In this document: positions 13,517 to 63,214 of the stretch, in pieces
Position numbering within the stretch: position 1 is the first letter of the stretch
Layout of the letters: each line of letters starts with the position of its first letter
NCBI GenBank assembly: GCA_964202455.1
Contig: CAXNIJ010000004.1
Span: 36,483-100,482 of the forward strand
DNA length: 64,000 nucleotides
From: Candidatus Pacearchaeota archaeon
Lineage (GTDB): Archaea; Nanobdellota; Nanobdellia; Pacearchaeales; GW2011-AR1
Direction: 5' to 3'
Program-made: the position numbers and the translations under genes
The notes under the pieces: model-generated
What the model saw: the letters and a program-made list of their open reading frames with translations, nothing else
Told to the model about the DNA's origin: nothing
Database searches by the model: none

Positions 13517-13762
13517 TTACTCATAAACTTCTTTTCGATGTTCAAAGCGTAAGAAATGGATAGTGTTATTGAAAAATGAATAAATGATTCTGTATGGTCT
13601 AACATATACTGTTCGTTCACCTTTCAAGTCATATCGTAAAGGCTTGCCTGTTTCAGGACTAGCAATAATTTTGTTAATCTGTTTTACCGCTTGCTGTTTG
13701 ACAGAAGTATCTGCTTTTTTGAACTCCCGTTCAAATTTTTCAGTATAGATTACTTCTACCAT
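13517..13762 (-). CDS. RelE/ParE-family toxin
   Basis: 81 aa: ...ETGKPLRYDLKGERTVYVRPYRIIYSFFNNTIHFLRFEHRKEVY. Overlaps the upstream antitoxin gene by 7 nt. Confidence 0.8.
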   Translation of the reverse strand: MVEVIYTEKFEREFKKADTSVKQQAVKQINKIIASPETGKPLRYDLKGERTVYVRPYRIIYSFFNNTIHFLRFEHRKEVYE

Positions 13763-14019
13763 TTTTCAATTTCTTTTAAGAAATCAGTACCGCTTAACTT
13801 TTTGTATTTACCTGCATCGATCTCTTTCCAGGCTTCTTTAATCTCTTCAAGAGTACGTAAGTCGTCCTCAAGAGGATTCTTTATTTTCTTTAACACAACA
13901 AGATCGTCCTTCGTTGAAACTGCTAACGTTTCTCCATCTCGAAGGTCGAGCCTTCTACGGACATCGAGAGGTATGACTACTTGTCCCTTACTGCTCATTT
14001 TTGTTAGTGCAATTTCCAT
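13756..14019 (-). CDS. AbrB/MazE-type antitoxin
   Basis: The internal ATG at 14019 gives MEIALTKMSSKGQVVIPLDVRRRLDLRDGETLAV (SpoVT/AbrB loop-hinge motif). Confidence 0.75.
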   Translation of the reverse strand: MEIALTKMSSKGQVVIPLDVRRRLDLRDGETLAVSTKDDLVVLKKIKNPLEDDLRTLEEIKEAWKEIDAGKYKKLSGTDFLKEIEKW

Positions 14020-14146
14020 ACTTTGGTAAGATTGTCTTACTATATAAATATTATGGTCTTTTAATATAAACCCTGTAGTAGTTACAAAATAGAAAGTTTT
14101 AAATATCAGCATTAATCGAGATCATTATGAAATCAATAAAAAAATA

Positions 14147-14886: not shown

Positions 14887-15105
14887 TGCCCCTGCCGGGA
14901 TTCGCACCCGGGTTTAGGCCGTTCTCCACTGTCTCAATTCGCTGAGAATCAAAAGATTCTCAGAGGATCAAAAACTTTCGTTTTTGATATGAGACACTGG
15001 TTTTAATACAGTGCCTGTCCAAAGATGGACTGAAGTTATGGTCTCGACGACGTAAACTTCGGCGATGCGAGAGGGCCTCGTCCTTGACTGCTAGACTACA
15101 AGGGC
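14887..15105 (-). tRNA. tRNA-Glu(CUC) with a 146-nt intron (14922..15067) after position 37
   Basis: The exons fold to a cloverleaf: GCCCTTG TA GTCT AGCAGTCAA GGAC G AGGCC CTCTCG | intron | C GGCCT AAAC CCGGG TGCGAAT CCCGG CAGGGGC A. Confidence 0.75.
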
Positions 15106-15155
15106 ATAAATAGACAGAGAGATGACTGTTTAAAAATCTGCTGTAGAAGCTAAAA

Positions 15156-15228
15156 TAGCCCCGCCCGGATTCGAACCGGGGTCACAGGCGCCAGAGGCCT
15201 ATATCCTAGACCGCTAGACTACGGGGCT
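15156..15228 (-). tRNA. tRNA-Gln(CUG)
   Basis: AGCCCCG TA GTCT AGCGGTCTA GGAT A TAGGC CTCTGGC GCCTG TGAC CCCGG TTCGAAT CCGGG CGGGGCT A. Confidence 0.9.
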
Positions 15229-15923: not shown

Positions 15924-15995
15924 GCCTCTATAGCTCAGTGATAGAGCGTTTCCTTGGTAAGGAAAAGGTCCCGAGTTTAATCCTCGGTAGAGGCT
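15924..15995 (+). tRNA. tRNA-Thr(GGU)
   Basis: GCCTCTA TA GCTC AGTGAT AGAGC G TTTCC TTGGTAA GGAAA AGGTC CCGAG TTTAATC CTCGG TAGAGGC T. Confidence 0.9.
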
Positions 15996-18634: not shown

Positions 18635-19309
18635 TTAATTCTTCGTTTCATGCTTTTTGACGGCATTGTATATTCCCTGCTTGTTATTTGAGTAATAGGC
18701 CCACATTCTATCTCCATAAGACCAATGCCACCATTCTAGTGGATAGTTAGTGAATCCGACTTTTTTCATCAGATCAATTAACAATGAACGATTTTTTTGT
18801 TCTTCTTCTGTCAAGCCATTGCAGATAGTATGTGCTTTTTCGGATATTGAATTAATCTCTGAACCCATTGGCAATTCTTTTCCAGCTACATCAACTAAAG
18901 TTATGTCTACTGCTGCGCCAGTTGTATGGGGGGGAATAGTTTCTGGATTTGCAACCCACTTGTCTGTTTCTAAAATAAGTTCTTCTTTAGTCATTGATTG
19001 ATTTTTTTCTTTTATTTCTTCAAATACTAACTTATAGAGTTTTTTCTGTGTATCTAATGAACGAAAGCCATCTATGACTTTTATCTTAATGCTTTTATGA
19101 AGAAGAGATTGAGCTTGAGAGAGCATTATCGCAACACTTTCTCTGATGAAGCATTCGTCTTCCTTGAGATTTTCATATTCTCTTGAGAAAGAATTTATTT
19201 CTATGATGATATCTTTTGAATAATCTCTAAGTGAAACTAGAGATTCTTTTGATTCTATAACTGGAATTTTCATTAATTCAAAATCTGAAATTACTTCTTG
19301 TTCATTCAT
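18635..19309 (-). CDS. M15D D-alanyl-D-alanine dipeptidase (VanX/DdpX-like)
   Basis: DGFRSLDTQKKLY, PPHTTGAAVDITL and EWWHWSYGD correspond to the VanX zinc-ligand and catalytic motifs. Confidence 0.8.
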   Translation of the reverse strand: MNEQEVISDFELMKIPVIESKESLVSLRDYSKDIIIEINSFSREYENLKEDECFIRESVAIMLSQAQSLLHKSIKIKVIDGFRSLDTQKKLYKLVFEEIKEKNQSMTKEELILETDKWVANPETIPPHTTGAAVDITLVDVAGKELPMGSEINSISEKAHTICNGLTEEEQKNRSLLIDLMKKVGFTNYPLEWWHWSYGDRMWAYYSNNKQGIYNAVKKHETKN

Positions 19310-20025
19310 GATAATCTTTCTATCCTCCCTGTTAAAGATATGCCTGAATTAGTTTTTTCTACTTTCAACAAACCGCCAGGCATGAATATTTTTGATTCTC
19401 CTGTTTCTAGAGCAGCGGCAATTGAACCAGTTCCACATGCTGCAGTAAAGTCTTCTACTCCGGTTTCGAATGTCTGCGCAAATATTCCTTGATTAATCTT
19501 TTTTACAAATGTAATATTCGCGCGGTGTTTTTTTCTTAAAGAGCTGGCTTTTGTTTTGAAGTTCTCTAGAGAGTCTACAATTATCACTTTATGTATGACT
19601 CCCCCAATATTCCAACAATTATTTATTTTCCATACTTTTGAAAATTCTACCTTAACTTCTTCTCCAATTATATTATATCTAAATGATCTTCCGAATGAAT
19701 AAATCGTGCCATTATTTTCTACTAGTCCTTTGGTGTGAGTTGCAAATACACAGACGCGTAAAGCATTACCACAATTATCTCTTGAGCCATCTGGATTAAA
19801 AAATTTCATTATTAATTTCTTGTTAGATTTTAATTCTAGAAAAGAAAGACCCTCTGCGTTATGCTTTTTACAGAGTTTTATTATATTCGATTTAGAGAGG
19901 GTTTTCTTATTAAAAAAACGATGCGCCACCCTACCTTGAAAGGGAGGGTTTACGTCAAATTCCTTGATATTAAAAAATAAGATAAATCTATTATGGTTGC
20001 CATGCCATATTTCAAAGTTATTCAT
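19306..20025 (-). CDS. DapF-fold PLP-independent epimerase/racemase (diaminopimelate-epimerase-like)
   Basis: FEIWHGNHNRFILF (compare F.KmhGlGNDF), FNPDGSRDNCGNALRVC and AACGTGSIAAA. Both catalytic Cys motifs are present. At 239 aa it is short for DapF. Confidence 0.7.
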   Translation of the reverse strand: MNNFEIWHGNHNRFILFFNIKEFDVNPPFQGRVAHRFFNKKTLSKSNIIKLCKKHNAEGLSFLELKSNKKLIMKFFNPDGSRDNCGNALRVCVFATHTKGLVENNGTIYSFGRSFRYNIIGEEVKVEFSKVWKINNCWNIGGVIHKVIIVDSLENFKTKASSLRKKHRANITFVKKINQGIFAQTFETGVEDFTAACGTGSIAAALETGESKIFMPGGLLKVEKTNSGISLTGRIERLS

Positions 20026-21190
20026 GATAAACCTCCGTTCTTTGAAGAGTGTGTGGGGAACCTTTTTTAAGTGATTGTTGTATTCCTGCTTTACCGAATT
20101 GAGGATATACTACTCCGAAGCCTATTCTTTTCTTTAATTTCTCTTCTACTAGTAAACTTCCATCGTGCCCAGTACAAACTAACTCGACTTCGTCAAATCC
20201 TGGAACTTTATTGAAATATGGAATAAGCTTCCTAGCATACCCATCTGCTCCTGCCATAAACTGCCCGGCTAGATGAATTCTATAAAGACTATCTGTACCT
20301 GGATCTTTTCGTGCTGGACTAAGAGAGATATAACTTAGAACCGATAAGGTGGGTATTAATATTCCTTTTTTCATTGCATTTGGACTTTCCTCTGCAAGAA
20401 CACTTTCCACTTCCCCATTTCTTTGAAACTGGAATCTATCTGGATTCTCGAAGAATTTCACAGGACATAGCTCTCCCTTGTGCGATTTTGCTCTGAATAG
20501 ATAGGTTGTGCCATTTGACTTGTGCTTGTGCTTGTACACATCAGGTAAATCCATTTTCCAGAAAGGAAAACCTGCTTCTAGATCTTCTTCTAGTTTTTGA
20601 GCATATAAGTCTCTAGAAAGAGAAGCGGGAGTACCTGAAGAATTAATTCCTGCGAGAGATAAGAATCTCTTTCTTATATTTTGCAGAAAATCTAAAGTAG
20701 ATTTGCTTTGGGACGCTGAAGTTCTAATTGATTTTATTACCTCTGAAAATCTTTGTGCTACTAACGATTTATTCTCTTTCGAGAAGCCAGTATTTTTTAC
20801 TAAGTTATCAAATGGTTCTTCTGTTGATCTTATAATTTGATCCGGTCGATACTCTTGATTCTCTATTGTTCGGCCATAATCAAAAAATATTGGAATAAAT
20901 TGTTCTTTTCCATCCCTATCTTTTAGATTTGTTTCTAATCTATCTCCAAGGGGTTTTTCTTTCTCTGGAAAAGTGCCATCATAATCTTCTAGAAGCATAG
21001 CTAAATTGCCTGATCTTTCTTTAATCAAGTCTACTAATGCATATCCATGTATTTCATCTGAAGTGAGATTGGGGGTGCAATGTGCGAAACTTGAAGATAG
21101 AGAGTATTCTACGTATCTTTGAGGTTTTTCCGGAGCTTTCGAAGAGTCTATCTTTTCCAAGATATCTTTGGCTATTTGTTCATTAAGCAT
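20018..21190 (-). CDS. hypothetical protein (390 aa), no family recognised
   Basis: Long ORF that overlaps both neighbours by 8 nt, consistent with translational coupling. Confidence 0.7.
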   Translation of the reverse strand: MLNEQIAKDILEKIDSSKAPEKPQRYVEYSLSSSFAHCTPNLTSDEIHGYALVDLIKERSGNLAMLLEDYDGTFPEKEKPLGDRLETNLKDRDGKEQFIPIFFDYGRTIENQEYRPDQIIRSTEEPFDNLVKNTGFSKENKSLVAQRFSEVIKSIRTSASQSKSTLDFLQNIRKRFLSLAGINSSGTPASLSRDLYAQKLEEDLEAGFPFWKMDLPDVYKHKHKSNGTTYLFRAKSHKGELCPVKFFENPDRFQFQRNGEVESVLAEESPNAMKKGILIPTLSVLSYISLSPARKDPGTDSLYRIHLAGQFMAGADGYARKLIPYFNKVPGFDEVELVCTGHDGSLLVEEKLKKRIGFGVVYPQFGKAGIQQSLKKGSPHTLQRTEVYHE

Positions 21191-21482
21191 TTTTGCCCCC
21201 CACTAATAGAAGTGCTGAAAGTGAAAGAACTATCTTATCTGATTCTTTCTCTAAAAGACCTAGAGAATTGAGAGAACGTAGAATAGACCAAGATGTAGAC
21301 TCTGCGCAGTTTAGCTCTTGAGCGAGATTCTTTACAGTTTGAGTTGTTCGCTCATGCTCTTCTTTATCGAAAATTATCTTGAGAGCTTTTTTTTCTCTAG
21401 CAGTTAGTTTTTTCGAAGCTAATGCTATAAAAGAATGATGCAAATTTTTTTCATAGATTTTAGATATAGATTTAGTATTCAT
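21183..21482 (-). CDS. winged-helix transcriptional regulator
   Basis: The ATG at 21482 is preceded by GGAGG. VKNLAQELNCAESTSWSILRSLNSLGLLEK is a wHTH recognition helix plus wing. Confidence 0.6.
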   Translation of the reverse strand: MNTKSISKIYEKNLHHSFIALASKKLTAREKKALKIIFDKEEHERTTQTVKNLAQELNCAESTSWSILRSLNSLGLLEKESDKIVLSLSALLLVGGKNA

Positions 21483-21639
21483 AAGAGGTTCCTCCAAAAA
21501 GAAAGTAAGAGAAATTCTCTTAAGAATAACGTAGGCCAAGCCAGGCGAAGTACATTCTTGTATTCACTGGTTGGACCTGTGTTTTCATACCATTATTTAA
21601 GAAAGCACCTTTAAAAATGTTTTCTGCAGAAAAAACCGG

Positions 21640-21850
21640 AGTGGTTTTTTTATGTCAAGGAACTTGAAATAAACTCCAGCTCATCAAGAATCTGCTGATT
21701 CTTGAGTGCCATCAAGGACTTTCATCCTTGAGGTTTAAGCTGGAGATGGTTCCTTGAGCATCCAAAGCACGAGCGCTTATTCAAACCCCAACTTTTAAGT
21801 TGGGGTAGCGCATCGTGCTTTTGATTTTAGAAAGACTTAAAAACTCTTTA
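21640..21850. repeat. hairpin-rich intergenic element, copy 1 (candidate structured RNA)
   Basis: Shares about 75 nt at one end and about 36 nt plus GAAAGNCTTAAAA at the other end with 40030-40250. Nested helices: CAAGGAAC/GTTCCTTG, CTCCAGCT/AGCTGGAG, TCAAGAATC/GATTCTTGA (21684-21705), CAAGGA/TCCTTG, AAAGCACGA/TCGTGCTTT, CCCCAACT/AGTTGGGG (21786-21805). Confidence 0.6.
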
Positions 21851-29829: not shown

Positions 29830-29900
29830 GGGTTCATCAGATAATGGTAGTCTGTCTGCCTCCAGAGCAGAACGCGGGGGTTCGATTCCTCCTGAGCCCA
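29830..29900 (+). tRNA. tRNA-Trp(CCA), intronless
   Basis: GGGTTCA TC AGAT AATGGTA GTCT G TCTGC CTCCAGA GCAGA ACGC GGGGG TTCGATT CCTCC TGAGCCC A. Confidence 0.85.
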
Positions 29901-40029: not shown

Positions 40030-40250
40030 GGTGTTTTTATATTTGATTATGTCATGGAACTTGACTAAAACTCCAGCTCGTCAAGAATCTTTGATTCTTG
40101 AGTGCCATCAAAGACGTATGTCTTGGAGGCTAAGAAACTCTTTGAGTTTCGAGGCGATCAGAAACTTTCAGTTTCTGACGTTTAAGTTGCGGTGGCGCAT
40201 CGTTTTTTTGATTTACAAAACTAAACCGAAAGTCTTAAAAGACTTCACTC
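40030..40250. repeat. hairpin-rich intergenic element, copy 2 (candidate structured RNA)
   Basis: Homologous to 21640-21850 at both ends. Hairpins: TCAAGAATC/GATTCTTGA (40081-40101), CAAAGAC/GTCTTGG, GAAACTC/GAGTTTC, TCAGAAACT/AGTTTCTGA (40158-40178). It abuts the kef start codon (40027). Confidence 0.6.
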
Positions 40251-40321
40251 TTCCTTTCTGTATCACATTCATCTCTCAAAGTGAGGAATCTATAAAATTT
40301 CTCACACATGGCTGAGATGAA

Positions 40322-40351
40322 GGGCCCAACCGCACGCGGCGCGGGGGGCCC
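40322..40351. other. GC-rich hairpin GGGCCC-N18-GGGCCC just 3' of the DedA-PAP2 gene
   Basis: Read directly. It is a roughly 30-nt, nearly all-G+C island in AT-rich surroundings, 13 nt downstream of the minus-strand stop at 40364. Confidence 0.4.
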
Positions 40352-54937: not shown

Positions 54938-55065
54938 ATTATATAATTACTATAGCCACTATATAAATCTTCCCACGTGTCGTTCGTCTTCCCTTCGCGC
55001 ACTGTACAGCCACCGTCACAAAAATACTAAACTCTCACGAAAACAAAAACTCTAATCAAAAATCT

Positions 55066-55332
55066 TCAATTAATTCTTTTCCTAGTCCAATTCGTATCAA
55101 AACTCTTTTTGTAAGAAATATAAGCCGCAATTAAAATAAAAACGCAAGTTAGAACGCCAGGGTATTCTTGCATAAAGACAAGAACAATTCCTGTAACTAA
55201 TGCGAGAACTATGACTCTCTTAAACCATTTTCTTCCTTGAATAAGTTCGTCGCGAGCGAGATGAGCTAACAGAAAACCTACTGGAATAGAAAAAATTAAT
55301 AAAACTAGTGAGAGAATAAGATTAGGCGACAT
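55066..55332 (-). CDS. small membrane protein (2-3 TM)
   Basis: 88-aa hydrophobic ORF that overlaps the PCD gene's end. Confidence 0.5.
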   Translation of the reverse strand: MSPNLILSLVLLIFSIPVGFLLAHLARDELIQGRKWFKRVIVLALVTGIVLVFMQEYPGVLTCVFILIAAYISYKKSFDTNWTRKRIN

Positions 55333-55597
55333 TGATTTTGTCTATTTCCTCCGCTACTAGAAAATCTTTATCTGTTAAAGTGTGTTCTGAATGAGTTGTT
55401 AGTGTAAGATGAACAAAAGTGTAATCTAGAATGATTGAGGGATGATGGTTGTGTTTCTCTGCAACTTCTCCGACTTTATTTACGAACTCCAATGCTTGTT
55501 TATAATCTGTAAAAGTATGATCTTTGACAATGGAACTACCTTCTAATGCCCAATCTTTAAGGACTTCCATCTTTTTTTGAATTTCGCCAAGGTTCAT
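55322..55597 (-). CDS. pterin-4-alpha-carbinolamine dehydratase (PCD/DCoH)
   Basis: ...F.DYKQALEFVNKVGEVAEKHNHHPSIILDYTFVHLTLTTHS...LTDKDF is the PCD signature. Confidence 0.85.
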   Translation of the reverse strand: MNLGEIQKKMEVLKDWALEGSSIVKDHTFTDYKQALEFVNKVGEVAEKHNHHPSIILDYTFVHLTLTTHSEHTLTDKDFLVAEEIDKINVA

Positions 55598-62878: not shown

Positions 62879-63214
62879 TTATTTTCTCCTCCTTTTGTCA
62901 AGAACCTTCTGGCTAAAGTTCTCAGTGCTTTTAGGTTCTTGAGCACCTCGAGAATCGAAGATTCTCTCAGCATTATCAGTGAGCTGTTTTACCAGCCATA
63001 AGATAAATAAGACTAAAACCAGCATTACTAAAATCATCATAATTATTCCGAAAATTCCACCATAACCTGACATCATTCCGTATCCAGTATAACTTCCATT
63101 CCCGTACCCGCATCCAAATAATCCTCCAGAATTTTTATTCATCATGGTGAATCCTCCAACTGCGACGAGTAATATGACTAATACTATAATCATTGCTGTT
63201 TCTTTGTTTTTCAT
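62879..63214 (-). CDS. Gly/Met/Tyr-rich small membrane protein
   Basis: 111 aa with two TMs flanking GGLFGCGYGNGSYTGYGMMSGYGG. Contiguous with copZ. Confidence 0.5.
   Translation of the reverse strand: MKNKETAMIIVLVILLVAVGGFTMMNKNSGGLFGCGYGNGSYTGYGMMSGYGGIFGIIMMILVMLVLVLFILWLVKQLTDNAERIFDSRGAQEPKSTENFSQKVLDKRRRK

Follow-up and report, generated by a model that had tools for sequence, protein, structure and literature searches.

A tRNA-Glu(CUC) gene of a Pacearchaeota-like archaeon with a conserved intron at position 37/38 and a probable later palindromic insertion from a DNA-level repeat family

A stretch of 64,000 nucleotides (nt) from contig CAXNIJ010000004.1 (assembly GCA_964202455.1, Candidatus Pacearchaeota archaeon), referred to here as the window, carries a gene for tRNA-Glu(CUC) that is split in its anticodon loop. 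We consider it likely that this gene is functional, that its interruption is a canonical protein-spliced intron at position 37/38, and that the intron later received a palindromic insertion from a repeat family that multiplies at the level of DNA. A first-pass annotation of the window had proposed the split gene and had read the intron as a spreading structured RNA module. The gene stands, while the origin of the intron has to be told differently. Its three parts are as follows.

15068..15105, minus strand: 5′ exon of tRNA-Glu(CUC), positions 1-37 (ARAGORN with introns allowed)
14922..15067, minus strand: intron of 146 nt at canonical position 37/38 (ARAGORN)
14887..14921, minus strand: 3′ exon of tRNA-Glu(CUC), positions 38-73 (sequence reading and ARAGORN)

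The 5′ exon supplies the 5′ strand of the acceptor stem, the D arm, the 5′ strand of the anticodon stem, and CUCUCG of the anticodon loop. The 3′ exon contributes C38, the 3′ strand of the anticodon stem, a variable loop of 4 nt, the T arm (loop UGCGAAU), the 3′ acceptor strand, and the discriminator A. Joined, they rebuild the full cloverleaf that the first-pass annotation had described: the spliced 73-mer folds with an acceptor stem of 7 base pairs (bp), a D stem of 4 bp, anticodon and T stems of 5 bp each, and the anticodon loop CUCUCGC. With introns of up to 400 nt allowed, ARAGORN called tRNA-Glu(ctc) at c[14886,15106], drawn as 75 bases with four arms and a 146-nt intron in the anticodon loop; the drawn intron boundary can be moved by 1 nt (a shared C) with the mature sequence unchanged. 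The precursor was predicted to fold at -87.6 kcal/mol (z = -6.6 versus shuffles), with the four tRNA arms present in the minimum-energy fold, and the intron alone at -55 kcal/mol (z = -6.95 versus shuffles). Neither ARAGORN in its default mode nor Rfam (gathering and E-value thresholds) found the split gene anywhere in the window, where both reported tRNA-Gln, tRNA-Thr, and tRNA-Trp alone. Because standard tRNA finders and Rfam miss the split gene, tRNA-Glu(CUC) would be counted as absent from this genome, in agreement with the finding that tRNA sets of DPANN archaea seem incomplete through undetected disrupted genes (PMC5829648). Our gene and tRNA searches extended beyond the window to ~78 kilobases (kb) of the source contig, and no second tRNA-Glu was found in this part of the genome. 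An independent assembly (a Logan ERR3719144 contig) ends at window position 14915, within the 3′ exon and 7 nt from the intron; strains that vary at the intron could account for this, as could a second sequence with T arm and acceptor in common.

In archaea, tRNA introns are cut at a bulge-helix-bulge (BHB) motif by the endonuclease EndA, and the exons are joined by an RtcB-type ligase. Both exon-intron junctions of tRNA-Glu can be drawn as such a motif.

15065..15078, minus strand: 5′ side of the BHB motif, with A27-C31 of the anticodon stem (h′), C32-U35 (15073-15070) in the central helix, and the bulge C36 G37|C(i1)
14916..14929, minus strand: 3′ side of the BHB motif, with GGAG (14927-14924) pairing to U35..C32, the bulge A A|C38, and G39-U43 of the anticodon stem

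In the central helix, C32 U33 C34 U35 face intron nucleotides G144 A143 G142 G141 (C32-G, U33-A, C34-G, U35-G), and these 4 bp stack directly on the 5-bp anticodon stem. The two bulges (C36 G37|C(i1) and A145 A146|C38) are of 3 nt each, and both splice sites come after the second bulge nucleotide, which places the predicted cuts after 15068 on the 5′ side and after 14922 on the 3′ side. When the junctions were held fixed and the introns shuffled, a central helix in this register arose in 0.9% of cases, and in 0.13% when an outer helix of 2 bp was required as well. Two related loci described below have exactly the same motif as the window. An hBHBh′ junction, which had been put forward as a check on the gene, can be drawn in canonical register, albeit with an outer helix of only 2 bp.

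Based on position and on what is known of archaeal promoters, the TATA-like box TTTTTAAAC upstream of the gene is a putative promoter, from which tRNA-Glu would be transcribed independently. In the precursor, C32-U35 would pair with the intron GGAG near the 3′ end of the intron, lengthening the anticodon stem and exposing the two 3-nt bulges. EndA would then cleave each bulge behind its second nucleotide (at G37|C and A|C38), and an RtcB-type ligase would join the exons and probably circularize the intron. These last steps, including the probable circular product, are modeled on established archaeal tRNA splicing.

We therefore place the tRNA-Glu intron among a known kind, the canonical-position archaeal BHB intron, whose testable defining features it shows, with a minimal outer helix. 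It resembles canonical EndA/BHB introns in its position at 37/38 and in a 3-nt/4-bp/3-nt motif beside the anticodon stem. It differs from them in its length of 146 nt (116 nt in relatives), in its host tRNA, Glu(CUC) of a DPANN archaeon, in the 2-bp outer helix, and in a nested palindromic repeat. As the first-pass annotation had noted, it is unusually long, beyond the range of 11-129 nt (median 12-25 nt) usually quoted for archaeal tRNA introns (PMC4090602, a 2014 review). Parallels also exist with tRNA genes that are split or disrupted in Nanoarchaeum equitans and Caldiarchaeum subterraneum (PMC3293823), which tRNA-Glu resembles in being broken at 37/38 in a DPANN genome; unlike the halves of split genes, its halves are contiguous in the window.

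Comparison with relatives shows which parts of the gene have been kept. The flanking tRNA genes and the orthologues used are these.

15128..15136, minus strand: TATA-like box TTTTTAAAC, at -31..-23 of tRNA-Glu, within a block of ~35 nt upstream that is conserved in three orthologues
15156..15228, minus strand: uninterrupted tRNA-Gln(CUG), located 48 nt upstream of tRNA-Glu and used to gauge divergence
15924-15995: tRNA-Thr(GGU) (ARAGORN/Rfam)
29830-29900: tRNA-Trp (ARAGORN/Rfam)
L004 5149-5337: orthologous tRNA-Glu(ctc) with a 116-nt intron (ARAGORN), from a Pacearchaeota metagenome-assembled genome (MAG) that also provides locus L001
L023 416-604: orthologous tRNA-Glu(ctc) with a 116-nt intron (ARAGORN), from GCA_964359475.1

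The host appears to be a Pacearchaeota-like DPANN archaeon, because the exact 5′ exon occurs in only one species-representative genome, a “Candidatus Pacearchaeota archaeon” MAG (VGKP01000002.1), because the best named relatives of neighboring proteins are in Nanoarchaeota and Woesearchaeota MAGs, and because the called genes are ordinary chromosomal ones (aminoacyl-tRNA synthetases, ribosomal proteins, replication factor C). The G+C content of the window is 33-34%, and its sequence matches a section of the 133,776-bp ENA contig ERZ27280223:k141_1010671 without a difference. Scans of genome and metagenome collections returned a single contig with a full orthologue and, on a 1.7-kb metagenome contig (L005), a partial copy. 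The order tRNA-Thr, tRNA-Gln, tRNA-Glu is the same in the window, L001/L004, and L023. Across these three genomes the tRNA-Glu exons do not differ at any of 73 positions in any pair, while tRNA-Gln and tRNA-Thr differ at 2-18 of ~73 positions (between window and L004, 13/73 and 18/73, respectively) and coding DNA of the window is ~66-70% identical to that of its relatives. The ~35 nt upstream of tRNA-Glu are also conserved in all three, including the TATA-like TTTT(T)AAAC at about -30. Since exons, promoter block, and intron ends were kept despite strong divergence elsewhere, the gene clearly appears to be maintained and not to be a pseudogene. The neighboring tRNA-Gln, which the first-pass annotation had correctly given as uninterrupted, has a D arm nearly identical to that of tRNA-Glu.

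The same three genomes make the history of the intron legible. Two of its segments are central here.

15005..15067, minus strand: conserved 5′ domain, the first 63 nt of the intron, drawn as a three-way junction that contains hairpins GAAGUU/AACUUC and GUCC(A)/(U)GGAC
14940..14989, no strand assigned: insertion of 50 nt made of two tandem perfect 9-bp palindromes, absent from L023 and L004

The 5′ domain differs at 1/63 positions from L023 and at 3/63 from L004, and every difference falls in a predicted loop or a loop-closing pair. The last 14 nt of the intron are the same in all three genomes, and a conserved CCAGTGTCTCA just before the loop of the last hairpin is also unchanged. Altogether, 96 of the 146 nt constitute an orthologous intron that is 95-99% conserved in two genomes, and 1-3 of ~92 positions in the shared parts differ between genomes. 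The two 116-nt introns differ from each other at 6 positions; 4 of them are unpaired, and at the other 2 only one side of a pair changed (U-G to C-G, A-U to G-U), which preserves a 7-bp hairpin in the tRNA sense. L023 and L004 also share a segment of 24 nt, the hairpin (C/U)G(G/A)AGCC-CACAA-GGUUUCG in the CACUG/CAGUG loop, where the window has AAAA instead. The terminal hairpin of the intron reads GTCTCA-AAT-TGAGAC in L023 and GTCTC-ATATA-GAGAC in L004. In the window, the insertion is seated in the apical loop of this last hairpin, GUCUCA/UGAGAC (14990-14995, 14931-14936), between GUCUCA and AAU-UGAGAC, and no target duplication was found at the insertion site. On the plus strand its two hairpins are CTGAGAATC-aaaa-GATTCTCAG (14942-14963) and ATCAAAAAC-tttc-GTTTTTGAT (14967-14988). 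The four intron hairpins listed by the first-pass annotation are thus all present, and the two of 9 bp are perfect.

A neighboring protein of 103 amino acids (aa) is 74% identical to its copy in L023 and 64% identical to that in L004; therefore, L004 serves as the outgroup. Because L023 and L004 share the ancestral hairpin states, both changes would be specific to the lineage of the window, which appears to have gained the 50-nt block and lost ~20 nt of another hairpin. Gain and loss alike are whole-hairpin changes within hairpin loops, and neither touches the splice motif. We suggest that the intron is old, given that a 116-nt form with the same ends and 5′ domain occurs in two other genomes, and that it grew to 146 nt here. 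The proposal that it is, or derives from, a spreading module fails for the intron as a whole because the two 116-nt orthologous introns lack the module; only 50 of the 146 nt (14940-14989) are shared with it, and the other 96 nt are orthologous and module-free in two genomes. Since splicing needs only the BHB motif, the intron would tolerate an insertion of 50 nt, the inserted hairpins would need no function as RNA, and the insertion was presumably neutral. The three orthologues provide a dated example of intron change, in which whole hairpins come and go within hairpin loops while one domain and the splice motif stay fixed.

The candidate source of the insertion is a family of repeats that we call box elements, found in the window and in relatives.

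40049..40215, plus strand: box element B, with 5′ box ATGTCATGGAACTTGAC, P2 stem CTCCAGC/GTTGCGG, and 3′ box GTGGCGCATCGTTTTTTT
21652..21830, plus strand: box element A, with the same 5′ and 3′ boxes and hairpins H1+H2 (21684-21733) in the loop of CTCCAGC/GCTGGAG; z = -11
19905..19970, minus strand: box element C, a minimal copy of ~60-66 nt, in frame within a dapF-like open reading frame (ORF)
L004 3971-4148: box element copy between tRNA-Thr and tRNA-Gln, whose first hairpin is CTCCAGC-TTTTAA-GCTGGAG (loop empty)
62933..62968, minus strand: element D, a degenerate two-hairpin relative within a called ORF of 111 aa (nhmmer E = 9e-6)

The plan of a box element comprises a 5′ box ATGTCAAGGAACTTGAC, itself a 6-bp hairpin, then the hairpin P2, whose loop is TTTTAA, and finally a 3′ box GTGGCGCATCGTTTTTTT; nested 9-bp hairpins make up the variable interior. 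The P2 loop is the empty TTTTAA in L004 and is filled by hairpin units in A and B, with four tandem 9-bp units in B (H1 at 40081-40101, H4 at 40158-40178). Thus, 9-bp hairpin units appear to build up inside hairpin loops, in box elements as in the intron. Copies in the window far exceed expectation: 3 of the 3′ box versus 0.03 expected, 4 of the 5′ box versus 0.17, 4 of the core AGAATC-N3-4-GATTCT versus 0.04, and 12 perfect hairpins of at least 9 bp versus 2.4, half of these last in the intron and elements A and B. A stand-alone H1+H2 pair (TCAAGAATC.. / TCAAGGAC..) lies in a fourth genome (L022 2812-2862), 5 nt before a duplicated tRNA-Thr 3′ end. Tandem Repeats Finder reported no array in element B, and Rfam gave no match for the box elements or the intron.

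Element C bears on the nature of the family. The DapF-like ORF (19306..20025, minus strand; 239 aa; Pfam DAP_epimerase) keeps its frame open through it, and the protein has an insertion of 17-21 aa, FDVNPPFQGRVAHRFFNKKT, that coincides with the translated element and is absent from 9/9 aligned homologues (44-53% identity). Because element C is an in-frame insertion in a dapF-like gene, the family seems able to land in frame in a protein gene, which is the behavior of mobile DNA and not of a dedicated small-RNA gene. The intron block would then be a member or copy of a palindromic hairpin family that multiplies at the DNA level in this clade.

We scored how closely the intron block matches this family in sequence. 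Against four comparison blocks, the intron block scored 9.5, 8.5, 13, and 6 in the plus orientation, which is antisense to tRNA-Glu, versus 2, -0.5, 5.5, and 1 in the other; among random two-hairpin modules, 5-8 of 5000 reached the observed score (p about 0.001, with the architecture given). We also trained a hidden Markov model, leaving the intron out, on five non-intron blocks from the window, L004, and L022, aligned by hand after MAFFT misaligned the second hairpin. A search with nhmmer recovered the five training blocks and element D. Homology of the intron block with the hairpin blocks of box elements is probable from these comparisons, with moderate support, and unproven. The first-pass annotation had seen the last two intron hairpins recur at 40030-40250; related hairpins do exist there, at 40081-40101 and 40158-40178, and the sequence link to them is moderate (p about 0.001; E = 0.061).

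Similar small repeats have been described elsewhere, and each resembles the box family in part. [quoted passage not shown] Element C, in frame in a dapF-like gene, is like an RPE. Unlike RPEs and MITEs, box elements are ~60-180 nt long, have an archaeal host, and include units nested in the hairpin loops of other copies; a search for the terminal inverted repeats and clear target-site duplications of classical MITEs found neither, and they have no known partner transposase. Among MITE-type traits, we found dispersed related copies above chance and presence or absence at orthologous sites (intron block, element C, P2 loop). Fungal mitochondria carry double-hairpin elements. In sponge mitochondria, repetitive hairpin-forming elements have been described (PMC2800124). 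As in these organelles, short hairpins here proliferate in an AT-rich compact genome, both between genes and within RNA and protein genes, which they do not destroy; the present genome is archaeal, not organellar, and there is no sequence relationship. For mitochondrial hairpin elements, we know of no described insertion in a tRNA intron. In Thermoproteales, whole introns have been transposed among tRNA genes (Fujishima et al. 2010, to the extent summarized in PMC4090602). The likeness lies in sequence movement at the DNA level and in a BHB requirement that leaves the interior free. Unlike those cases, the intron here is orthologous within one tRNA, and only its internal 50-nt block has relatives, which are outside tRNA genes; the other three tRNAs in the ~78 kb have no intron, and a BLAST search of the tRNA-Glu intron against the window found no second copy. 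If the family is what it seems, compact DPANN genomes would carry selfish repeats similar to RPEs or to repetitive extragenic palindromic elements, in an intron, between genes, and in frame, which have hardly been looked at before.

Several observations weigh against the account given so far. The outer helix h of the splice motif is only 2 bp (i2-i140, A-U; i3-i139, U-G), and a longer intron stem competes with it. Forcing the BHB motif costs 5.4 kcal/mol over the minimum-energy fold in the window and 6.2 in an orthologue, with a range up to 8.2, the minimum-energy fold being off by one nucleotide in register. Such a cost is not unusual and need not argue against the motif. For DPANN archaea, it has been reported that EndA variants can have a broadened specificity, that disrupted tRNA genes are many, and that tRNA sets are predicted incompletely (PMC5829648), and a minimal outer helix would be acceptable to a relaxed-specificity EndA of the kind reported there. 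Neither EndA nor RtcB is among the called genes of the ~78 kb, and neither is a transposase or integrase. Box elements show no terminal inverted repeats and no convincing target-site duplication; B, C, and the L004 copy do carry T-rich or TTGAT-like strings at either end, but these might just as well be promoter-like and terminator-like sequence. The leave-one-out model placed the intron block on the plus strand at a marginal nhmmer E = 0.061 (model positions 7-50 of 52). Three orthologues were found, and the polarity of change rests on one outgroup. Finally, in the window, L004, and L023 alike, positions 18 and 55 of tRNA-Glu are A and G (T loop UGCGAAU) instead of the usual G and U, so that the tRNA could be atypical or impaired. 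In tRNAs generally, G18 and U55 make a conserved, near-universal contact at the elbow. According to PMC7912444, no tRNA modification is more universally conserved than pseudouridine 55. An A18:G55 pair kept in three genomes and the complete invariance of tRNA-Glu are leads for tRNA biology.

We asked whether the conserved 116-nt core of the intron might itself be a functional noncoding RNA, for example a stable circular intron, a reading that is compatible with the one we prefer and that we regard as a tentative possibility. The 1-3 differences in ~92 shared positions are few next to coding DNA that is ~66-70% identical and other tRNAs that differ at 13-18/73 positions, 6/6 differences between the 116-nt introns fit the predicted fold, and typical archaeal tRNA introns are far shorter (median 12-25 nt, range 11-129 nt; PMC4090602). 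The exons are equally invariant, however, and a recent common origin of the whole gene may explain the low divergence; moreover, a 20-nt deletion and a 50-nt insertion were tolerated in the lineage of the window. The intron has no Rfam hit and no C/D box. The long archaeal tRNA-Trp intron hosts a box C/D guide RNA. The tRNA-Glu intron is like it in being long, structured, and conserved among relatives; unlike it, the intron contains no C box (RUGAUGA), even with one mismatch allowed, so that the suggestion of a C/D guide within it, raised at first pass, finds no footing. The only CUGA of the intron falls inside the inserted palindrome, and the 116-nt orthologues do not have it.

The invariance of tRNA-Glu beside tRNAs diverged by 18-25% points either to constraint of an unusual kind or to a more recent shared origin, as an integrative element could bring about. 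It is conceivable, and in our judgment unlikely, that the whole gene was exchanged or homogenized between lineages by such an element using an exon-intron attachment site, with the palindromes as recombination debris. The exons, with 0/73 differences versus 13-18/73 in neighboring tRNAs, would fit exchange, as would the partial copy in L005, where 55 nt from tRNA position 8 to intron nucleotide 27 are exact and are followed by unrelated DNA with small ORFs. This copy (L005 1180-1233, minus strand) has no properly spaced promoter and a diverged acceptor strand; it could be a scar of an attachment site or of recombination, or else the 5′ half of a tRNA gene that is becoming split. In joining a 5′ part and 27 intron nucleotides to unrelated DNA, it resembles the proposed intron-to-split-gene route. 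The adjacent tRNA-Thr also looks like an integration hot spot in the clade, because a Phage_integrase gene lies directly downstream of it in L023 (2125-3249) and because contigs of distant relatives break near the same place: those of more distant relatives found via an ABC-2 permease (52-63% identity) end near tRNA-Thr and contain no boxes. In L022, a 1.9-kb insert lies between tRNA-Thr 3′-end repeats, with the two-hairpin block 5 nt from the repeat. Against exchange, tRNA-Thr, tRNA-Gln, and tRNA-Glu stay syntenic in three genomes, none of the loci has an integrase near tRNA-Glu, and the L005 ORFs have no Pfam match. Four scans of viral contigs (with a 32-mer of the exon, the 3′ box, the junction of exon and intron, and the palindrome of H1) likewise returned unrelated high-GC phage sequences or none, so that nothing related to exon, junction, or hairpin was seen. 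The spacer gene of L023 has no Pfam match.

Two bolder readings, to which we jointly assign a low probability, would go further. Under the first, double-hairpin units could be undescribed archaeal mobile DNA that prefers existing hairpin loops and spreads without terminal repeats or a nearby transposase; its sites could include box elements, where units are nested, a tRNA intron, and positions beside tRNA attachment-site repeats. Under the second, an invariant tRNA-Glu unit with its 116-nt core and A18:G55 elbow could move between DPANN lineages, and its intron may yield a functional, possibly circular RNA.

The first-pass annotation had taken the paired changes between hairpin copies as the signature of selection on RNA structure. 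The hairpins would then be an RNA module, for instance protein-binding or stabilizing, that spreads between transcripts and that the intron is or derives from, which we now find very unlikely. The paired stem changes themselves are real (CTGAGAATC/GATTCTCAG versus TCAAGAATC/GATTCTTGA), but perfect DNA palindromes show such differences by construction, so they are not evidence of RNA selection. Box elements do fold very stably, with z down to -11, and with a T-run at the end and a TATA-like stretch upstream they could be small RNA genes. Set against this, the module stems are perfectly Watson-Crick, with zero G-U pairs, as expected of DNA palindromes, and folding energy is alike on both strands of the box elements and thus blind to strand. 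The best match of the intron block is antisense to tRNA-Glu, element C is translated in frame in the dapF-like gene, there is no Rfam family match, and the shared part amounts to 50/146 nt, the remainder being an older orthologous intron. The findings agree better with a tolerant intron that harbors a palindromic DNA repeat than with selection at the RNA level. The last alternative, a dead tRNA-Glu gene disrupted by an insertion in its anticodon loop, can be given almost no weight: default tRNA finders and Rfam miss the gene, A18 and G55 are noncanonical, and the strict-motif fold differs from the minimum-energy fold, but three strongly diverged genomes, in which a pseudogene would decay, share identical exons, promoter block, and splice motif, the interruption falls exactly at 37/38 with a correctly phased BHB motif, and no other tRNA-Glu occurs in ~78 kb.

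Some further features were noted around the box elements. Two other interpretations of these elements were considered and set aside. As peptide genes starting from the ATG of the 5′ box, element A stops after 6 codons, and the frames of the 3′ box differ between B and the L004 copy. As inverted transposon ends, A and C would enclose the genes at 20018-21539, where the 390-aa protein has no Pfam match or transposase signature. The element D region (62895-62970) contains TCAAGAACC...GGTTCTTGA plus GAGAATC-gaa-GATTCTC, and its ORF belongs to a cluster of copper-transport genes; nothing in L001 is similar to this ORF at the nucleotide level, and the flanking aligned blocks are ~37 nt apart there. 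At the intergenic site of the window's element A, L004 (1250-1600, minus strand) has a cytidine-deaminase-like pseudogene with in-frame stops. In L022, tRNA-Thr and its second 3′-end copy (896-968 and 2812-2879) flank ~1.9 kb that encodes a peptide deformylase, a nucleotidyltransferase, and a HEPN protein. Between element B and the end of a PAP2 gene, a GC-rich structured stretch at 40268-40350 (a GGGCCC..GGGCCC hairpin plus a long AT-rich stem) has z of about -4.8 on both strands and no Rfam match.

Toxin-antitoxin genes also occur in the window. Genes for ParE toxins are present at 13517-14112, with a MazE-type antitoxin gene at 13756-14112, and at ~54943-55429, with a DUF7557 gene (positions derived from L027 2079-2327 and L028 14372-14858), and a solo gene with a MazE domain lies at 2513-2908. 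One of the ParE pairs is ~775 nt from the tRNA-Glu gene.

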